64,000 bases of DNA from an uncultured Ruminococcus sp. (GTDB lineage: Bacteria > Bacillota > Clostridia > RUG12999): the NCBI GenBank assembly GCA_902784805.1, contig CACZWD010000016.1, forward strand, positions 16,754-80,753, given 5' to 3'. Below are positions 15,283-36,223 of the stretch, piece by piece; position 1 is the stretch's first letter; every line of letters begins with the position of its first letter. The position numbers and the translations under genes are program-made. The notes under the pieces were generated by a model that ran no database searches, had not been told where the DNA came from, and saw nothing but the letters and a program-made list of their open reading frames with translations.

Positions 15283-15710
15283 AGCTTATAAGCGAATATA
15301 TTTACACATTATGCGTATGTCTGGTGTTGAGCTCGGCAGTTTTTGCGGCAGTACCCGAAAGCACGCTTAAAGCAACATTTAAAACGGCTGTTGGTATAGT
15401 TATTGCGCTTATTGCGGTATCTGCTTTCGCCCGTGTTCCGGAACTGCAAATTCCTTACTCCAGGGGAGATGAAGTTATTGAATATGGGGCTGAAAACGAA
15501 AATATGGAAGAGCTTATAATTGAGCAGACGAAAAAGCTGTCGGAAAATAAAATTTCAAATCAGGTTGGCGGCAAAAAAGTCAGAATTACACTTGAAGATA
15601 ATGGAAATATAGAAAAGGTGGAGATTGAAAATGTTACAAAAGCGGATAAAATCCTGGTTTCAAGAAATAACAAAATTGAAATTGAAAAAATCATGGGGCT
15701 TAATGAATAA
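15279..15710 (+). CDS. spoIIIAF: stage III sporulation protein AF
   Basis: Operon position, ATGA overlap with spoIIIAE, and N-terminal TM segments. Confidence 0.7.
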   Translation: MKLISEYIYTLCVCLVLSSAVFAAVPESTLKATFKTAVGIVIALIAVSAFARVPELQIPYSRGDEVIEYGAENENMEELIIEQTKKLSENKISNQVGGKKVRITLEDNGNIEKVEIENVTKADKILVSRNNKIEIEKIMGLNE

Positions 15711-16167
15711 AACGCCTGTTTTTATTTTTGCGGCAATTATAGCCGCCATTGTTCTTGCAATATCGCCGGGCGATAAAGATGAAAAACCGCCTTTATCCGG
15801 TGAGGTTTCGGCAAACAATTCGGAAATTGAATTGCGCCTTGAAAAAATATTATCGGGAATCAAAGGGGCGGGGAAGGTTGAAGTTATGGTCGTTTTTAAG
15901 GATGACGGAAAAGAGGATATCGCGATGAACCGTGAATATCAGAGAGATAATGCCGGAATGGTTAAAAGCGGCGAAACCGCAGTTATGACAAGCGGCAGAA
16001 ACGCTGTTGTCGTACAAAAAAACCTTCCGAATGTTCAAGGCGTTATTGTTACGGCGGAGGGAGCAAACGACGAAACCGTGAAAGAAAATCTTAAAAACGC
16101 GGTTGCGGCGGCGCTGCCGGTTGCGTATCATCGTATTGAAGTGCTTGAAAAGGAATATAATGGGTAA
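15703..16167 (+). CDS. spoIIIAG: stage III sporulation protein AG
   Basis: The MNK start overlaps the spoIIIAF stop by 8 nt. One TM segment is followed by a soluble domain. The track start at 15625 is the alternative. Confidence 0.7.
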   Translation: MNKTPVFIFAAIIAAIVLAISPGDKDEKPPLSGEVSANNSEIELRLEKILSGIKGAGKVEVMVVFKDDGKEDIAMNREYQRDNAGMVKSGETAVMTSGRNAVVVQKNLPNVQGVIVTAEGANDETVKENLKNAVAAALPVAYHRIEVLEKEYNG

Positions 16168-16219
16168 ACTATACATATATATATTAAAAGAAAACGTCTG
16201 AGAAAGGAAAGTCAAATTT

Positions 16220-16762
16220 ATGGAAAAAAACAGAAAATATATTGTGCTTACAATCCTTGTTGCCATGGTTGCCGTTGCGGGGTATCTTAACAGAAATTAT
16301 AATGACGGACTGCCTGTTGTGAGTGAGGAAACAGCTGCGGAAACCGCCGGGGAAGCAACTATGGTAAGCGCGAAAGCGGGAAAACCGAAGCAGGAAACAA
16401 AAGCGCCGGAAAGCGACGCGCTGAAAGACGCGAAAACCGCGAAAGACACTTCAAGAAGCCGCGCGATGGAGCTTTTAAACAGTATAATAAATGACGAAAA
16501 TTCGGGTAATGAAAACAGAGAAAAAGCAACCGACGAGCTTGCGCAGATGTCAAAAAATATGGAAGCGGAAGGCGTCATTGAAGGTATTTTAAAAACAAAG
16601 GGCTTTGAAAAAAGTGTTGTTTTTATAACAAACGGCATTGCCACCGTTGCTGTGAAAAGTGATAAAAGCCTTTCAGCGTCGGACGTTGCGAAAATTCAGG
16701 ATGTTGTAAAGAATAACGGTAATATATCAGGCGAAAAAATTACAATTACGCAGGTAAAATAA
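16220..16762 (+). CDS. spoIIIAH: stage III sporulation protein AH
   Basis: Last gene of the operon, with an N-terminal TM segment and a C-terminal YscJ/FliF-like domain pattern. Confidence 0.75.
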   Translation: MEKNRKYIVLTILVAMVAVAGYLNRNYNDGLPVVSEETAAETAGEATMVSAKAGKPKQETKAPESDALKDAKTAKDTSRSRAMELLNSIINDENSGNENREKATDELAQMSKNMEAEGVIEGILKTKGFEKSVVFITNGIATVAVKSDKSLSASDVAKIQDVVKNNGNISGEKITITQVK

Positions 16763-16766
16763 AAAT

Positions 16767-17035
16767 GGGGCTGTGAGTTTTGTCACAGCCCCCAGAGCGC
16801 TGACAAACTCGGTCTAACGCAAGCAACTTTATTATTTTAAAACCCGTAACATTTTTTTAATTTTTTTTTCTTTGTTTTATGTGAGCGGCGCGGTTTTCTC
16901 TGAAACCGCGCCGCTGCTTGCTTTTCGCCCTTTAAACCTCTACCGTACACACGTACGCCGCCTTCGTTTTTCAGCCTCTGTTCAGCTTAATGACTTTGTC
17001 ATTAAGCTGGGGGCTGTGAGTTTTGTCACAGCCCC
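16767..17035. repeat. copy 1 of a non-coding repeat element: 217-bp core (16793-17009) flanked by identical 26-bp hairpins (16767-16792 and 17010-17035)
   Basis: ggggctgtgagttttgtcacagcccc is present on both sides. The core is homologous to 25507-25747. Confidence 0.8.
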
Positions 17036-17040
17036 ATTTT

Positions 17041-17946
17041 TTAGATTTCCCAGTAATCCCAGTCTTTTTTATTCTTTTTAAACTTCATAATCAGCTCCGA
17101 TGGTTTTTCGGTAATTGTGGAATTTGCGGGTACCGAATGAGTTATAAAACAGTTTCCGCCGATTATTGCGTTTTTGCCTATGACGGTTTCGCCTCCTAAA
17201 ATGGTCGCTCCGGAATATATGGTAACACCGTCTTCGATTGTTGGGTGACGTTTGACGCCCGCGAGCTTCTGACCGTCTCTTGTTGAAAGAGCGCCGAGAG
17301 TGACACCCTGATATATTTTAACATTGTCACCTATAATTGTTGTTTCACCGACAACAACACCGGTACCATGGTCAATGAAAAAATATTTTCCGATTTCCGC
17401 GCCGGAGTTGATGTCAATTCCTGTACGGCTGTGCGCGTGTTCCGTCATAATTCTCGCGATAAGCGGAACGTCCGCAAGATAAAGCGGATGCGCAATTCGA
17501 TAAACAAAGATCGCAAAAAGCCCCGGATAGGAGTAAATAATATCATCTTTTGTTTTTGCAGCAGGGTCGCCGTTAAAACCCGCTTCTATATCGTAAAGCA
17601 TAAGCTGCTGAATTTCGGGAAGCCGGGCAAAAAAATCATTGCATATTTTTTCGGCGCGCTCTGTCGTATCGCAGTCATCGCAGGTATATTCAAACGCGGC
17701 TTTTATTTCCGCTTTAAGCTTTTCATAAACACGGTTTATTTTGTTTCCGATATAATATTCGTCCGATTTTGGAGCAATTTCATCAAAATACCCCGGGAAA
17801 ACAACCTCTTTGAGTTCGTCTATAATTTCAATAACGGCAGATTTTGAAGGCATTCTCTTACCGTTTTTATTACAGAATACAGGGTCGTTTTTATAGGTAT
17901 AATCAATTTTTTTTATAACTTCGGAAAGCATTTTATTGTTTTTCAT
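17041..17946 (-). CDS. cysE: serine O-acetyltransferase
   Basis: Left-handed beta-helix hexapeptide repeats (GIDINSGAEIGKYFFIDHGTGVVVGETTIIGDNVKIYQGVTLG) and an N-terminal SATase helical domain. Confidence 0.85.
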   Translation of the reverse strand: MKNNKMLSEVIKKIDYTYKNDPVFCNKNGKRMPSKSAVIEIIDELKEVVFPGYFDEIAPKSDEYYIGNKINRVYEKLKAEIKAAFEYTCDDCDTTERAEKICNDFFARLPEIQQLMLYDIEAGFNGDPAAKTKDDIIYSYPGLFAIFVYRIAHPLYLADVPLIARIMTEHAHSRTGIDINSGAEIGKYFFIDHGTGVVVGETTIIGDNVKIYQGVTLGALSTRDGQKLAGVKRHPTIEDGVTIYSGATILGGETVIGKNAIIGGNCFITHSVPANSTITEKPSELIMKFKKNKKDWDYWEI

Positions 17947-18000
17947 ATAATCAGACCTTTCTGAAAAGCGATAATAGGGGAGCAGTTCCGTTCCTTTTGC

Positions 18001-29086: not shown

Positions 29087-32000
29087 TTACACAATATCAA
29101 GCAAATTAACCTGGCTTGTTTCGGGTATGCCGTCAAGACAGCCTTTTTCCTTCATTACCTGTATAATTGTTTTTGAAACTTTTGTTCTTTTTTTGAAATC
29201 GTCTATTGTAACAAAAGGACCGTCTTTTCTTGCCTTAACAACGCTGTTTGCTGCCTGCACGCCAAAGCCCGCGATTGCGTTTAAGGGAAGCAGTATTCCG
29301 TCCTCTTTTGGCAGGAATTTAACAGCATCGGATTCATAAATATCTATCGGTAAAAAATTAATGCCTCTTGCGTACATTTCATTACACATTTCGAGTATCG
29401 TTACCATATCCTTTTCCTTAACGGTGGCGTCGTCCTTATCCTTAAAGGCTAAAAGATTTTCTTTTACTTTTTCTTTTCCGACAGCCATATATTCGGCGTC
29501 AAAAGCGTCAGCGCGGACAGTAAAATATACCGAGTAATACTCTTTCGGATAATATACTTTAAAATACGCAACTCTGAATGCCATCATAACGTAAGCGACG
29601 GCGTGAGCCTTCGGGAAAAGATATTTTATTTTTTTGCATGACTCAATATACCATTCGGGAACGTTATTGTCACGCATAATCTGTTCTTCTTCGGGAGTAA
29701 GCCCCTTGCCTTTTCTCACGTGCTCCATTATGCTGAACGAATCTTTTTTCGGACAGCCGGCGTATATAAGATAGGTCATAATATCGTCACGGGTACATAT
29801 ACATTCTTTAAGAGTCGCAGTGCCGCTTTTTACAAGATTCTGCGCATTGTCAAGCCACACATTTGTTCCGTGAGAAAGCCCCGAAATACGGACAAGCTCG
29901 GCAAAGGTTGTCGGGTGAGTATCAACAAGCATCTTTCTGACAAAAGGAGTTCCGAATTCCGAAATTCCGTAAGTGCCTGTCGGGCTGAATATTTCCTCGG
30001 GTGTAACGCCAAGAGCCTCGGTGCCTTCAAAAAGCGTCATAACCTTTTTTTCACCTATTTTTATGGTTTTTGAGTCAATTCCCGTAATATCCTCCAGCAT
30101 ACGGATAACAGTCGGGTCATCATGTCCTAAAATATCAAGCTTTAAAAGCTTGCCCGATATTGAATGATAATCAAAATGAGTTGTTATTATATCGCTTGTC
30201 GCGTCATCCGCCGGGTGCTGAATAGGGCAGAAGTTATGTATATCGTTATCTCTCGGTACAACCATAATGCCGCCGGGATGCTGACCGGTTGTCCGTTTAA
30301 CGCCCACACAGCCCTTGGCAAGCCGTTCCATTTCACAGTTTGTGGCGGTAAGCCCATGTTCTTCAAAATATTTTTTAACATAACCGTATGCCGTTTTTTC
30401 AGCAACGGTACCTATTGTGCCTGCGCGGAAAACAAAGCCTTCGCCAAAAAGCACTTCGGTATATTTATGAGCCTTGGGCTGATAGTCGCCCGAGAAGTTG
30501 AGGTCTATATCGGGCTCTTTGTCACCTTCAAAGCCGAGGAAGGTTTCAAAAGGTATATCATGCCCGTCGCCGTACATAAGCTCGCCGCATTTCGGACAGC
30601 GCTTGTCGGGCAAATCCCAGCCGGAGGGCTGTGAGCCGTCGGTTATAAATTCGCTGTATTTGCATTTTTTACATATATAATGCGGTTGGAGAGCGTTTAC
30701 CTCCGTTATGCCCGCAAGGAAAGCAATAAAAGATGAGCCGACTGAGCCTCTTGAGCCTACAAGATAGCCATCCTCATTGGATTTCCATACAAGATTTTTC
30801 GCGATTATGTACATAACGGAAAATCCGTATTTTATAATTGAGCCGAGCTCTCTGTCCATACGGCTCTGTACAATTTCGGGAAGCGGGTCGCCGTAAATCG
30901 AAACCGCTTTTTCTTTTGTGATTTTTATAAGCTCCTCTTCCGCTCCTTCAATTTTCGGCGGTGCCGGCTCTTTTGGAAGAAGCTGTATATCGTCAATCAT
31001 ATCGGCAATTCTGTTCGGAACGGTTATAACAACCTCTTTTGCTTTTTCTTCGCCGAGATAGTCAAATTCTTTAAGCATTTCTTCGGTTGTTCTGAAATAT
31101 AAGGGCGGCTGATAATCGGCATCCTCAAAGCCTTTCGCGTGCATAAGAATACGCCTGTAAACCTCGTCCTTCGCTTCAATAAAATGAACGTCGCAGGTTG
31201 CCGCAACGGGTTTGTTAAGCTTTTCGCCAAGCTTTACAATCCGGCGGTTAAATTCTTTCAACCCTTCATCGTCCGTAACAAAGCCTTCACGCTTCAAAAA
31301 CTCGTTGTTTCCTATAGGCTGAATTTCAAGATAATCGTAAAATTCCGCAATTTTTTCGGTTTCGGTTTCATTCTCACCCATAAGCATTGAGCAAAACAGC
31401 TCACCCGATTCGCACGCGGAGCCCAGAATAAGACCTTCACGGTATTTTGCAAGAGTTTCACGGGTGATAACGGGGTGTTTTTTAAAATGATTAAGGTTTG
31501 AGTCGGATATGATTCTGTACAGATTTACAAGACCCGGCTTGTTTTTCACAAGGAGTATTATATGATAGTCACGCCGTCTTGACGGGTTAAAACCGGCAAG
31601 CTTTTTGTTAAACTCGGTTAAATTGGTTATTTCGTGTTTCTTAAGCAGGTCAATGCAGCGGCGCATAATTTCCGCCGTTGCTTCGGCATCGTCAACCGCT
31701 CTGTGATGATGAAGAAGCTCAATATTAAGATGCTTTGTCATTGCCGCAAGACTGTGAGTTTTGCGCTCATTGTAAAGCGCGCGGCAAAGATTAAGGGTAT
31801 CGACATAGCAGGGCTTAAACGGCAGACCGAGACGGGCGGCATTTACACGAATAAAGCCGACATCAAAAGTCGCGTTGTGCGCGACCAAAACACAGCCGCC
31901 GCAAAATTCAAGAAATTTCGGCAGGACCTTATCAATGGTTTCGGCGTTTTCAACGTCGCTGTCTTTTATCGAGGTAAGCTCTGTTGTTTGCGCGGAAAGC

Positions 32001-33430
32001 TTCATTTCAGGGTTTACAAAGGCGGAAAATCTGTCTGTAATATTGCCGTTTTTAAGCTTTACCGCACCGATTTCAATAATTTTATCCTCCTGACAGTGCA
32101 GTCCGGTTGTTTCAATGTCAAAAACAACAAAATCACCGTCAACGGTATAATCTGTGGCGTCATATACAATGCGCATTTTATCGCCTTCAAGGTAGCCTTC
32201 CATACCGTAAAGTATTTTTATATCGCTTTTTATATCTTTTTTCGCATTAAAGGCGTCGGGAAAAGCCTGTGCAACGCCGTGGTCGGTTATCGCAACAGCC
32301 TTATGTCCCCATTTGGCGGCAAGCTTAACAATATTGCCCGCGTTGCCGATGGCGTCCATAGCGGACATTTGTGTATGCATATGAAGCTCAACACGTTTTT
32401 CTTCGGCATTATCCGTCCTTTCGGGCTCTTTTGCGATTTTAACAATACCCGAACACATAAGCGTAAGCTCTTTCGCAAAACTGTCAAATTCGATTCTGCC
32501 GCTTACCATAAGCCTCATATTTTCTTTCAGCTCCGAAAGAAGCGTTTCAAGCTTTTCTGTTTGTTTCCGCTTTTTGTTTTCGTCCTTTTCGTCGTTTTTC
32601 GCGCCTTCAAACATTTTCACCTTTATGGAGCTTGTATAATCGGTTATATTAAAAGAAACAAGGGTTTTGCCCGATTTAAGCTGTCTTTTTTCAATGTTCC
32701 AGATATCGCCCGCGACAACAATTTTGTCATAGGGACCTTTTACGTTTATAAGCGGAGTAATGTCGGGATTAATGATTTTTTTGCCTTTTAAAACCTTTTC
32801 GGCTTCAATTTCCCCTTCCATTATTTCGGTTGTGTCGGCCTCATGGGCAAGCTCCCGCTGTTCTTTAAGCTGCTGACGCTCAAGATATTTCGTCACATTC
32901 ATTGACGCTTCGTTTAAAGCCGCCTGTTTTTCCTTTTCAAATTTCTCGTATGCCGCTTCGTCATAGTTGCCGCCTATAATAACTTTAAATTTTTTACCTG
33001 TTTCTTCGTAAATAAAATTTGAAATAACACGCTCACAGCCGAACTTCGCGATAAGCTCGCCCATACCGAATTTGGTTGTGATTTTAATAATATCATTGTC
33101 AAGCTGCCATACGGAATCCATAAGCACAAGCTTTAAAATTGATTTTATTTCGCCTATCCGGTTTTCGAGATGAGCCGAGTAAACCGGCAGGTTATGTCGG
33201 TTAATTTCTATGCCCGAATAATCAATATTTACAAAAACATTTTCACAGGAATATTCAGCCGCAAAATCTTTTTTTATAATATCAATATATTTTTCGTCAA
33301 CAACATAAGAAGGTTTTATGCGCAGCATAATACTTCTTTCGGTTAAATTGACTTTTATATCCGAAACATCGATTTTATCAAAAAAATCGGGGGTTTCACC
33401 CGAAAAAAAGCTGCTTAATTTTCTTGACAT
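29087..33430 (-). CDS. polC: DNA polymerase III, PolC type
   Basis: About 1447 aa. PHP domain (ELHMHTQMSAMD), DEDDh exonuclease insert (FVVFDIETTGL; HRAVDDA) and a polymerase core. The ATG at 33430 has RBS gaaggga; the TTG at 33448 is less likely. Confidence 0.95.
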   Translation of the reverse strand: MSRKLSSFFSGETPDFFDKIDVSDIKVNLTERSIMLRIKPSYVVDEKYIDIIKKDFAAEYSCENVFVNIDYSGIEINRHNLPVYSAHLENRIGEIKSILKLVLMDSVWQLDNDIIKITTKFGMGELIAKFGCERVISNFIYEETGKKFKVIIGGNYDEAAYEKFEKEKQAALNEASMNVTKYLERQQLKEQRELAHEADTTEIMEGEIEAEKVLKGKKIINPDITPLINVKGPYDKIVVAGDIWNIEKRQLKSGKTLVSFNITDYTSSIKVKMFEGAKNDEKDENKKRKQTEKLETLLSELKENMRLMVSGRIEFDSFAKELTLMCSGIVKIAKEPERTDNAEEKRVELHMHTQMSAMDAIGNAGNIVKLAAKWGHKAVAITDHGVAQAFPDAFNAKKDIKSDIKILYGMEGYLEGDKMRIVYDATDYTVDGDFVVFDIETTGLHCQEDKIIEIGAVKLKNGNITDRFSAFVNPEMKLSAQTTELTSIKDSDVENAETIDKVLPKFLEFCGGCVLVAHNATFDVGFIRVNAARLGLPFKPCYVDTLNLCRALYNERKTHSLAAMTKHLNIELLHHHRAVDDAEATAEIMRRCIDLLKKHEITNLTEFNKKLAGFNPSRRRDYHIILLVKNKPGLVNLYRIISDSNLNHFKKHPVITRETLAKYREGLILGSACESGELFCSMLMGENETETEKIAEFYDYLEIQPIGNNEFLKREGFVTDDEGLKEFNRRIVKLGEKLNKPVAATCDVHFIEAKDEVYRRILMHAKGFEDADYQPPLYFRTTEEMLKEFDYLGEEKAKEVVITVPNRIADMIDDIQLLPKEPAPPKIEGAEEELIKITKEKAVSIYGDPLPEIVQSRMDRELGSIIKYGFSVMYIIAKNLVWKSNEDGYLVGSRGSVGSSFIAFLAGITEVNALQPHYICKKCKYSEFITDGSQPSGWDLPDKRCPKCGELMYGDGHDIPFETFLGFEGDKEPDIDLNFSGDYQPKAHKYTEVLFGEGFVFRAGTIGTVAEKTAYGYVKKYFEEHGLTATNCEMERLAKGCVGVKRTTGQHPGGIMVVPRDNDIHNFCPIQHPADDATSDIITTHFDYHSISGKLLKLDILGHDDPTVIRMLEDITGIDSKTIKIGEKKVMTLFEGTEALGVTPEEIFSPTGTYGISEFGTPFVRKMLVDTHPTTFAELVRISGLSHGTNVWLDNAQNLVKSGTATLKECICTRDDIMTYLIYAGCPKKDSFSIMEHVRKGKGLTPEEEQIMRDNNVPEWYIESCKKIKYLFPKAHAVAYVMMAFRVAYFKVYYPKEYYSVYFTVRADAFDAEYMAVGKEKVKENLLAFKDKDDATVKEKDMVTILEMCNEMYARGINFLPIDIYESDAVKFLPKEDGILLPLNAIAGFGVQAANSVVKARKDGPFVTIDDFKKRTKVSKTIIQVMKEKGCLDGIPETSQVNLLDIV

Positions 33431-33579
33431 AAAAAATGTTCCCTTCAAAAATTATAACTTAATTATAATTATATATCATTGAATTTTTATTGTCAAGATT
33501 TTTCTGTAAAATGATCTGAAAAGTAAAGAGTGACAGCTCTAATGAAATATATTCTTTTTATGTTATTAAAACTTCTGTA

Positions 33580-35619: not shown

Positions 35620-36099
35620 GATTTCTGAAAAAAGGTTACAGAATTTTAGTGTTCCGGCATTAAAATTCATGGGAAAGTGAAATTGTTCTCTTAGTTTTCT
35701 TATGGATTCGTGATAAAATAACCTCAATATCGATAAAGATGCTTAACACAAGAGTAATCATTGTTTCCAAAGAAGGAAATCAATGATCGTAGATGTAAGA
35801 AAAATATACCTTCGTTTTTCAGCTTTACAAAACATACTATACTACTATGTTTTTCTTTATGCTGATTGCCTTCTTCTATATCTAAAGTCGTTTTTCATTG
35901 AACCGCAGAAAATGCCCTATTGCAGAAGCAACAGGGCATTTTTGTGCGAGTTTTGTTATAAGATTCAATCAAGAGCGCCACAGGTGAAACCGTAAAAAGG
36001 TGGTAGTGAAATGAGAGGCGTTATGCCCGCATTTACAAGGGCATAGACGAAACGAACAAGCAAAAGGAGGAACGATGGTGCGTGTGACTGATTTTTGTG

Positions 36100-36138: not shown

Positions 36139-36223
36139 TGGTGCGGATGACAGGGGTCGAACCTGCACGCCTTGCAGCACAAGAACCTAAATCTTGCGTG
36201 TATGCCAATTTCACCACATCCGC
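36139..36223 (-). tRNA. tRNA-Leu (anticodon UAG), class II with long variable arm, encoded CCA
   Basis: Minus strand GCGGATGTGGTGAAATTGGCA...CAAGA-TTTAGGT-TCTTG...GGTTCGACCCCTGTCATCCGCACCA gives a cloverleaf that folds by hand. Confidence 0.9.

Follow-up and report, generated by a model that had tools for sequence, protein, structure and literature searches.

The SpoIIIAH gene on the plus strand and an acetyltransferase gene on the minus strand converge within the 64-kb window, by which we mean the whole stretch of DNA that was analysed, and between them lies a 217-bp core flanked on both sides by the same 26-nt hairpin. A sequence-only reading of this DNA had described the gene pair as convergent spoIIIAH and cysE. 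Pfam bears this out for SpoIIIAH, and homologues of the second product, a hexapeptide-repeat acetyltransferase, are named serine O-acetyltransferase in their sources. The locus comprises the following features:

16220-16762, plus strand: SpoIIIAH gene (Pfam E = 1.7e-35)
16767-16792, no strand assigned: left hairpin, first copy of the target duplication; exact 26-nt repeat, with a homologous single hairpin at the same place in the relative L028
16793-17009, plus strand: element copy 1, 217 bp (nhmmer E = 4e-55 against the family profile; compared with L001-L003)
16793-16808, plus strand: left terminal inverted repeat cagagcgctgacaaac = CAGAGCGCTGACAAAC, pairing with 16966-16980 (alignment A1)
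16884-16915, no strand assigned: GC-rich internal hairpin with a 13-14 bp stem, most pairs of which show compensatory changes across copies
16924-16957, no strand assigned: central 17-bp hairpin, represented in copy 1 by its left arm and its tip (cgtac/gtacg) owing to deletion of the right arm
16966-16980, plus strand: right, subterminal inverted repeat gtttttcagcctctg = GTTTTTCAGCCTCTG, at which truncated family members stop exactly
16983-17009, no strand assigned: terminal hairpin belonging to the element (12-bp stem, 3-nt loop), directly adjacent to the right target copy; its stem covaries among copies
17010-17035, no strand assigned: right hairpin copy, exact repeat, followed by the original T-run (terminator scan; L028)
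17041-17946, minus strand: hexapeptide-repeat acetyltransferase gene (Pfam)

Exactly two copies of the 26-nt sequence GGGGCTGTGAGTTTTGTCACAGCCCC, identical to each other, are present in the window (16767-16792 and 17010-17035), as the sequence-only reading had reported. No further match with three or fewer mismatches was found in the 64 kb, and shuffled sequences gave an expectation of 0. Both copies fold as a 10-bp stem with a 6-nt loop, and the combination of a GC-rich stem-loop, a T-run and a position at a gene 3' end is that of an intrinsic (rho-independent) terminator. A terminator scan flagged the left hairpin, with its A-run upstream, as a minus-strand terminator and the right hairpin, with its T-run downstream, as a plus-strand terminator. 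The two copies with their outer runs are read as the halves of one bidirectional terminator.

The undivided form is present in L028, a relative with a SpoIIIAH that is 98% identical in amino acid sequence and with DNA about 91% identical to the window. There, the core is absent, the flanks are as in the window, and the sequence reads aaataaaaat, a single 26-nt hairpin and attttttagatttccc (in full, ...gcaggttaaataaaaat, CGGGCTGTGATAAAATGCACAGCCCG, attttttagatttcccagtaatccc...), giving aaaaat-hairpin-atttttt between the convergent genes, a terminator that the window scan flags in both orientations. This is exactly the empty site with one hairpin that had been predicted from the window. The element is thus carried by strains that are 99.3-99.9% identical and is absent from the 91% relative. 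An 88% cysE orthologue also ends at a single bidirectional terminator, but has a different neighbour gene. The core at 16793-17009 is an insertion, and the earlier proposal that it entered a bidirectional terminator and duplicated the whole hairpin is supported by the empty site, by the multi-copy nature of the core and by the locus-specific repeats described below.

No insertion would be needed if the core were a resident small-RNA gene bounded by two terminators of its own, or if the hairpin had been duplicated in tandem independently. The window region folds strongly (z about -14), and its sRNA-like hairpins ending in a terminator would suit such a gene, yet we consider this most improbable given the exact empty site in a close relative and the recurrence of the same core at about 20 unrelated loci with different flanking hairpins. 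Two hairpins without the core, an arrangement singled out beforehand as speaking against insertion, were seen at no examined locus. Nor did an RNA family emerge from the Rfam/Infernal search that had been suggested: at a permissive E-value, window positions 15500-18500 and the full-copy loci L004 and L005 gave chance matches (E = 0.68 and 0.87), far below gathering scores, with no match to group II introns, retrons, HEARO/omega RNA or known sRNAs.

The element family and its anatomy

BLASTN of the core against the window, a check likewise proposed at the outset, recovered a second copy between ypeB and a gene for a VWA/SLH protein, bringing the window total to two:

25475-25506, no strand assigned: left target duplication of copy 2, AT-rich and partly decayed, ctcagaatttttacattttgagag + ttt, different from the copy 1 hairpin
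25507-25745, plus strand: element copy 2, full length, 239 bp (blastn and nhmmer, E = 6.5e-71)
25746-25777, no strand assigned: right target duplication of copy 2, AT-rich, aac-cctctcaaaatttttacattttgagagg-tt, the same hairpin as on the left side

Contigs with identical YpeB all carry copy 2. It is missing from L035, which is 88% identical at this second locus; the upstream intergenic part is non-homologous there, making L035 an absence allele rather than a clean empty site.

Outside the window, an exact-motif scan of species-representative genomes yielded 3 copies in two rumen MAGs (RUG12999 and RGIG3571), and 15 further loci came from metagenome contigs scanned with a second, independent motif taken from the left end. 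In addition to the two window copies, about 20 copies turned up at distinct loci of rumen MAGs and metagenomes (L004-L022), and many contigs break inside the element, as is expected of a repeat. Searching all collected loci by nhmmer with the family profile returned no additional copies, blastn of a full copy against phage and plasmid collections gave zero matches, and three scans of viral contigs with conserved motifs gave 0. Solo ends or a solo terminal hairpin were sought in the window and none were found besides the two copies.

Isolated fragments were seen at two places. In the window, a 22-nt exact match (aaatataccttcgtttttcagc, 35802-35823) to the right subterminal part of the full-length element lies within the 677 bp that separate a GGDEF/EAL gene from tRNA-Leu (36139-36223, minus strand); it may be the relic of a third copy, with no other element part recognisable there. 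In L030 (895-960; also in L031), a 15-nt left-end fragment, tCAGAGCGCTGACAAc, lies downstream of a 76%-identical SpoIIIAH, flanked by two unlike hairpins, agtgcgg...ccgcact and caactgcct...aggcagttg plus a T-run. It could represent a copy reduced by extensive deletion or the scar of an excision.

Relative to the 240-bp element, copy 1 lacks 24 internal nt near 16960/16961 and has one T more. L001-L003, which come from other samples and are 99.3-99.9% identical to the window, show the same arrangement around an element of 240 bp, and their 24 additional bases, acgagatttaaaggacgaaatata, form the right arm, absent from copy 1, of the 17-bp stem. Because near-identical strains carry this missing arm, copy 1 is a deletion derivative of the 240-bp element. 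The 217-bp core is therefore not a full-length element. The inverted ends noted in the sequence-only reading are both present, although the right arm is subterminal and the terminal hairpin lies outside it. Among the internal structures it listed, the gtac..gtac mini-hairpin (cgtac/gtacg, 16944-16957) and the 27-nt terminal hairpin (16983-17009) stand unchanged; the GC-rich hairpin, given as 12 bp at 16885-16914, has a stem of 13-14 bp at 16884-16915.

Alignment A1 of 14 copies gives the family anatomy, from left to right:

Left end: CAGAGYRCTGACAAACTCGGTCTAMCGCAAGC, nearly invariant; its first 32 nt are the best-conserved segment of the family
AT-rich stretch: about 50-60 nt, variable; another repeat is nested here in L022
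GC-rich hairpin: stem sequence varies between copies, pairing is kept
Conserved linker: TGCTTGCTTTCCG
Central hairpin: 17 bp, tip CGTAC/GTACG
Right subterminal repeat: ATATACCTTCGTTTCTCAGCCTCTG, an imperfect inverted repeat with the left end
Terminal hairpin: TCAGnnTGATGAC-TTT-GTCATCAnnCTGA, inner part conserved, outer part covarying

The imperfect inverted repeat, CAGAG(C)GCTGACAAAC / GTTTCTCAGC-CTCTG, measures 15-16 nt, with the ends CAGAGYRCTGACAAAC ... GTTTCTCAGCCTCTG: the right arm is subterminal and is followed by a hairpin of 27-31 nt with non-conserved outer bases. Right-end deletions are common. The short copies L013, L016 and L017 end exactly at the CTCTG of the subterminal repeat and lack the right repeat, and L007 and L009 represent different deletions at one locus. 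No ORF is conserved across the copies, which at 217-240 bp contain chance ORFs only, and inspection of both strands of the AT-rich segment for promoters gave no more than weak matches at the level of shuffled sequence.

RNAalifold identified 16-18 pairs with compensatory double changes, and the three internal hairpins keep their pairing. The consensus fold reaches -65.7 kcal/mol on the window minus strand versus -42.4 kcal/mol on the plus strand, and wobble pairs in the shared helices fill 30 cells on the minus strand versus 7 on the plus strand (11 versus 6 positions), a count that is somewhat biased because the structure had been predicted on the minus strand. Together, these values hint, with moderate force, at folding of a single strand, either in RNA or in single-stranded DNA.

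Hairpins also occur in flipped form. The GC hairpin of L005 (3894-3922) is the exact reverse complement of that of copy 1, and the terminal hairpin of copy 2 (window 25719-25745) is flipped. Among target hairpins, the repeats of L008 (reverse strand, about 1886-1925) have the loops AAAT and ATTT with a compensating stem change, and the window hairpin is nearer to the inverted than to the direct form of the L028 hairpin (2596-2621). The right repeat of L008 runs on into TCAGACTG, which equals the opening 8 nt of the terminal hairpin arm of the element. Such loop 'flip/flop' may be ordinary for palindromes or may have been left by the way in which the element inserts.

Other repeats and genes were seen in the same material. 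The intergenic DNA of related rumen Clostridia holds further dispersed repeats (L029 1610-1900, L030 630-880, L032 1640-2030, L035 2915-2940 and L022 2700-2970, one of them nested in the AT-rich part of the element in L022), which include the hairpins ggggcggcaaYctgccgcccg, a motif absent from the window, and ggtccccgaaaaatcgtgagattttttgggga. Directly to the right of the truncated element in L013 (reverse strand, about 1135-1370), a ~200-bp segment with repeated CATTTCAC motifs, bounded by two GTTTAGATGCA, resembles a small insertion of another kind that made an 11-nt duplication. A candidate TPP riboswitch, judged by the appearance of the sequence (ctgagagg ... accctttaacctgatttggataatgccaacg), lies at L027 3925-4045, following the 68%-identical acetyltransferase and preceding a thiamine-transporter-like gene (PF09515). 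Two large window ORFs, 18001-22488 (minus strand, 1495 aa, with S-layer homology (SLH) domains) and 29087-33448 (minus strand, 1453 aa), are unrelated to the element.

Duplications match the local hairpin

The direct repeats that flank the element at the nine full-length loci are in every case copies of the local stem-loop, and they differ from locus to locus:

Window copy 1: 26 nt, identical copies
Window copy 2: about 28-32 nt, left copy partly decayed
L004: 26-27 nt, one mismatch
L005: 22-24 nt
L008: 25 nt
L010: 24-25 nt
L014: 19-21 nt
L015: 23 plus 4 nt
L021: 39-41 nt

Since each full copy is flanked by a different local hairpin, the repeats are derived from the target and are not parts of the element. 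Their length (19-41 nt) tracks the size of the hairpin, and their edges lie about 0-4 nt from the first and last paired bases at the nine loci; edges held this closely over such a range mean that the duplication is set by target structure and not by a fixed length. When copies cut by contig ends are included, the CAGAG end begins 0-4 nt past the hairpin 3' foot at 18 of 19 left junctions. The sequences at the hairpin feet, on inspection, show no relationship to one another (GGGG.., CCCG.., GGGT.., GACA.., AGTA..).

The target chosen appears to be the foot of a stem-loop, mostly that of an intrinsic terminator. At most targets other than the bidirectional one, the T-run is on the element's right; by eye, this holds for the one-directional terminators in L010, L015, the L007/L009 locus and copy 2. 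Some targets are not obvious terminators: that of L005, which lies 12 nt upstream of a ribosome-binding site, and those of L008 and L021, which have no T-run.

Long duplications of arbitrary length have been reported for IS1634/IS1549, and the same pattern could in principle arise if duplications of any length were made and selection kept those that span a whole terminator, preserving termination on both sides. Insertions do lie downstream of genes, where preservation of a terminator should matter. Such selection, however, would equally allow duplications larger than the hairpin, whereas the observed edges keep to within 0-4 nt of the feet at nine loci, and the target hairpins of L005, L008 and L021 are not obvious terminators. 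We therefore regard this explanation as very unlikely.

No description of hairpin-length or terminator duplication in bacterial transposons was found in the literature searched. The element family is new, with an unusual, structure-defined target duplication. Our overall reading, to which we assign a probability of about 0.6, is that the core is one copy of a ~240-bp non-coding, non-autonomous, mobile MITE-like family of rumen Clostridia, and that its integration is guided by target structure.

Comparison with known systems

The remark in the sequence-only reading that the insertion fits no familiar IS or MITE class held against Rfam, the phage and plasmid collections and the literature searched. 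Bacterial MITEs and small repeats (Correia/NEMIS, ERIC, RUP, BOX, bcr1, Nezha) come close in appearance, being alike in their ~240-bp size, non-coding, multi-copy and intergenic nature, ends related by an (in the element imperfect) inverted repeat, highly base-paired fold, target duplication and polymorphism between close strains. The element is small and non-coding, with dispersed copies that show presence/absence polymorphism (L028, L035). In known MITEs, the parent transposase determines the duplication, which is short and constant in length (2-9 bp). By contrast, the element has a duplication at 9 of 9 loci but one of 19-41 nt that equals the local stem-loop instead of having a length characteristic of the family, and its right inverted repeat is subterminal and followed by a structural hairpin.

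Casposons make duplications of about 14-15 bp at specific sites. In Cas1-Cas2 spacer integration, staggered attack at the borders of the palindromic CRISPR repeat, followed by gap filling, duplicates the repeat (PMC4940900). The element shares with Cas1-Cas2 and casposon products an insert between two palindromic target units (about 28-37 bp) and AT-rich sequence beside the palindrome. CRISPR repeats have one fixed sequence and length per array, measured by motifs or rulers, whereas the targets of the element are unrelated and variable. The locus does not match a CRISPR array or other Cas1-type product, as the repeats differ per locus, the insert is conserved and 240 bp long, and no cas gene was seen nearby; the resemblance to CRISPR integration appears to lie only in the geometry of the duplication.

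Stem-loops, terminators included, also serve as landing sites for REP-targeting IS elements and class C group II introns. The introns are ribozymes that make no target duplication, and this, with the absence of an Rfam intron match, rules out a group IIC intron. IS elements that target REP or attC hairpins (ISPsy8, ISPa11, ISPpu9/10, ISRm22, the IS1111 group) split or abut the palindrome, make duplications of 0-6 bp and use a particular repeat sequence (PMC1525189); these short duplications and the sequence-specific target exclude them. The IS1202 family resembles the element in its very long target duplications, and some members adjoin palindrome-like Xer sites. Its duplications, however, fall into classes of 5-6, 16-17 or 27-28 bp, its ends begin with TGT, and its members are 1.3-2 kb long with a transposase (10.1101/2022.12.17.520857). 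The element has ends that begin with CAGAG and no conserved ORF, and its duplication varies continuously with the hairpin (19-41 nt), which excludes IS1202.

As in PATEs and REPINs, whose function depends on hairpins rather than on long inverted repeats, folding of the element is strand-asymmetric. PATEs, which are IS200/IS605 derivatives, and REPINs make no target duplication and require a specific tetra- or pentanucleotide beside the hairpin; long duplications at unrelated target sequences set the element apart from both. An integron cassette or attC site was dismissed because the hairpin feet are unrelated by inspection and lack RYYYAAC / GTTRRRY core sites. Site-specific recombination with an attP-like target copy is ruled out by targets that differ at every locus, and capture of a donor flank by rolling-circle read-through by repeats that match the local site and not a donor.

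Proposed mode of integration at a stem-loop and its expected consequences

The simplest and most likely account of the duplication is double-strand integration at opposite feet of the stem-loop. In the form we propose, an integrase acting in trans would recognise the hairpin extruded as a cruciform, a four-way junction, and the two element ends would be joined to both DNA strands at the junction foot. The points of attack would be a few bp apart in space and a whole palindrome apart along the sequence, and gap repair would copy the palindrome with 0-4 nt on either side. Attack spanning the feet of an extruded stem-loop could explain why the 19-41-nt duplication always matches the local hairpin. 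Cruciform extrusion in vivo is an assumption of the model; leaving this detail aside, the ends would be joined at opposite stem-loop feet and the resulting single-stranded hairpins then filled in. The form of the duplication suggests that the enzyme reads DNA shape, probably that of a cruciform. More tentatively, and at rather less than even odds, this would be a new mode of integration, in which a recombinase picks DNA by shape and not by sequence and joins the insert across the foot, leaving a structure-defined duplication of variable length. The integration mechanism behind the family stands a substantial chance of being new in its own right.

Several observations sit uneasily with the cruciform model. 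The outermost right terminus is not conserved in sequence, which is unusual for a DDE-type end, and the short copies L013, L016 and L017 have no right duplication and leave the role of the terminal hairpin unexplained. The orientation bias of the T-run also counts against it, because a perfectly symmetric attack on a cruciform does not predict a bias. The strand-asymmetric wobble pairs hint that an RNA or a single-stranded intermediate is involved, for which the double-strand model has no need.

These observations bear on two rivals. In the first, an HUH/Y1-type enzyme (IS200/IS605- or RAYT-like) would cut single strands at hairpin 3' feet, with the terminal hairpin and the target hairpin as its recognition structures. 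Both types of junction do read 'hairpin 3' foot | next segment', the terminal hairpin is kept in structure and not in sequence, and the T-run bias, the 30 versus 7 wobble cells and the -65.7 versus -42.4 kcal/mol folds fit a single-stranded substrate. Yet known peel-and-paste transposition gives no target duplication and needs a short specific target, whereas here 19-41 nt are duplicated at 9 of 9 loci with unrelated targets, and a true inverted repeat pairs the element ends. Moreover, the favoured folding strand is antisense to the terminators and probably not the lagging-strand template, the direction of replication being guessed from gene orientation. We judge this route unlikely.

Still less likely, in our view, is SINE-like copying through RNA, whereby a transcript of the element would be reverse-transcribed at a nick in the hairpin foot (target-primed) and a second foot nick would generate the duplication. 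Target-primed insertion does yield duplications of variable length, class C group II introns likewise insert just after terminator hairpins, and the strong conserved structure, with compensatory changes and G-U-type asymmetry on one strand, would be natural for an RNA. On the other hand, both ends are precise and form an inverted repeat, with neither a 3' tail nor a series of 5' truncations; no reverse transcriptase gene is nearby, no intron or retron RNA matches in Rfam, and no convincing internal promoter is present. The favoured folding strand would also not be terminated at one-directional sites. As currently known, neither the HUH nor the RNA-mediated mechanism would yield such a duplication, and both remain rivals of double-strand integration at the stem-loop feet.

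A candidate enzyme did not emerge, which likewise counts against the proposed integration. No transposase or integrase gene lies beside any copy or in the examined parts of the window, and Pfam annotation of both neighbours of each window copy and 10 more window proteins gave sporulation, cell-wall and housekeeping functions, with no transposase, Cas1, reverse transcriptase or HUH protein. The autonomous partner whose search had been recommended did not turn up either: the window, the collected loci and the phage and plasmid collections yielded neither an autonomous IS nor any longer element sharing these ends.

For the host genes, integration across the foot would leave the outer tails with the outer copies, the A-run on the left and the T-run on the right; both neighbouring genes would retain a hairpin, and the inner side of each copy would lose its tail. 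With these inner tails lost, transcription entering from either flank would probably continue across the element as far as the opposite hairpin copy. The duplicated unit being a palindrome, its two copies also form long inverted repeats, an arrangement expected to promote precise removal by slippage.

Textbook transposases produce target duplications whose length is dictated by enzyme geometry, and a duplication that follows the secondary structure of its target over 19-41 nt departs from this rule. It is a case of an insert with a duplicated palindrome outside CRISPR and as such bears on the origin of repeat duplication in CRISPR adaptation. If the structure-guided reading is true, the family would reveal a natural, sequence-independent, 'terminator-seeking' integrase, parallel to the Cas1-type reaction and possibly related to it, and an integrase directed to terminators by shape would be a useful safe-harbour tool. 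The repeats of the element break metagenome assemblies of rumen Clostridia. For these bacteria, the family provides a natural example of near-harmless insertion, landing after genes and rebuilding a terminator hairpin on each side.
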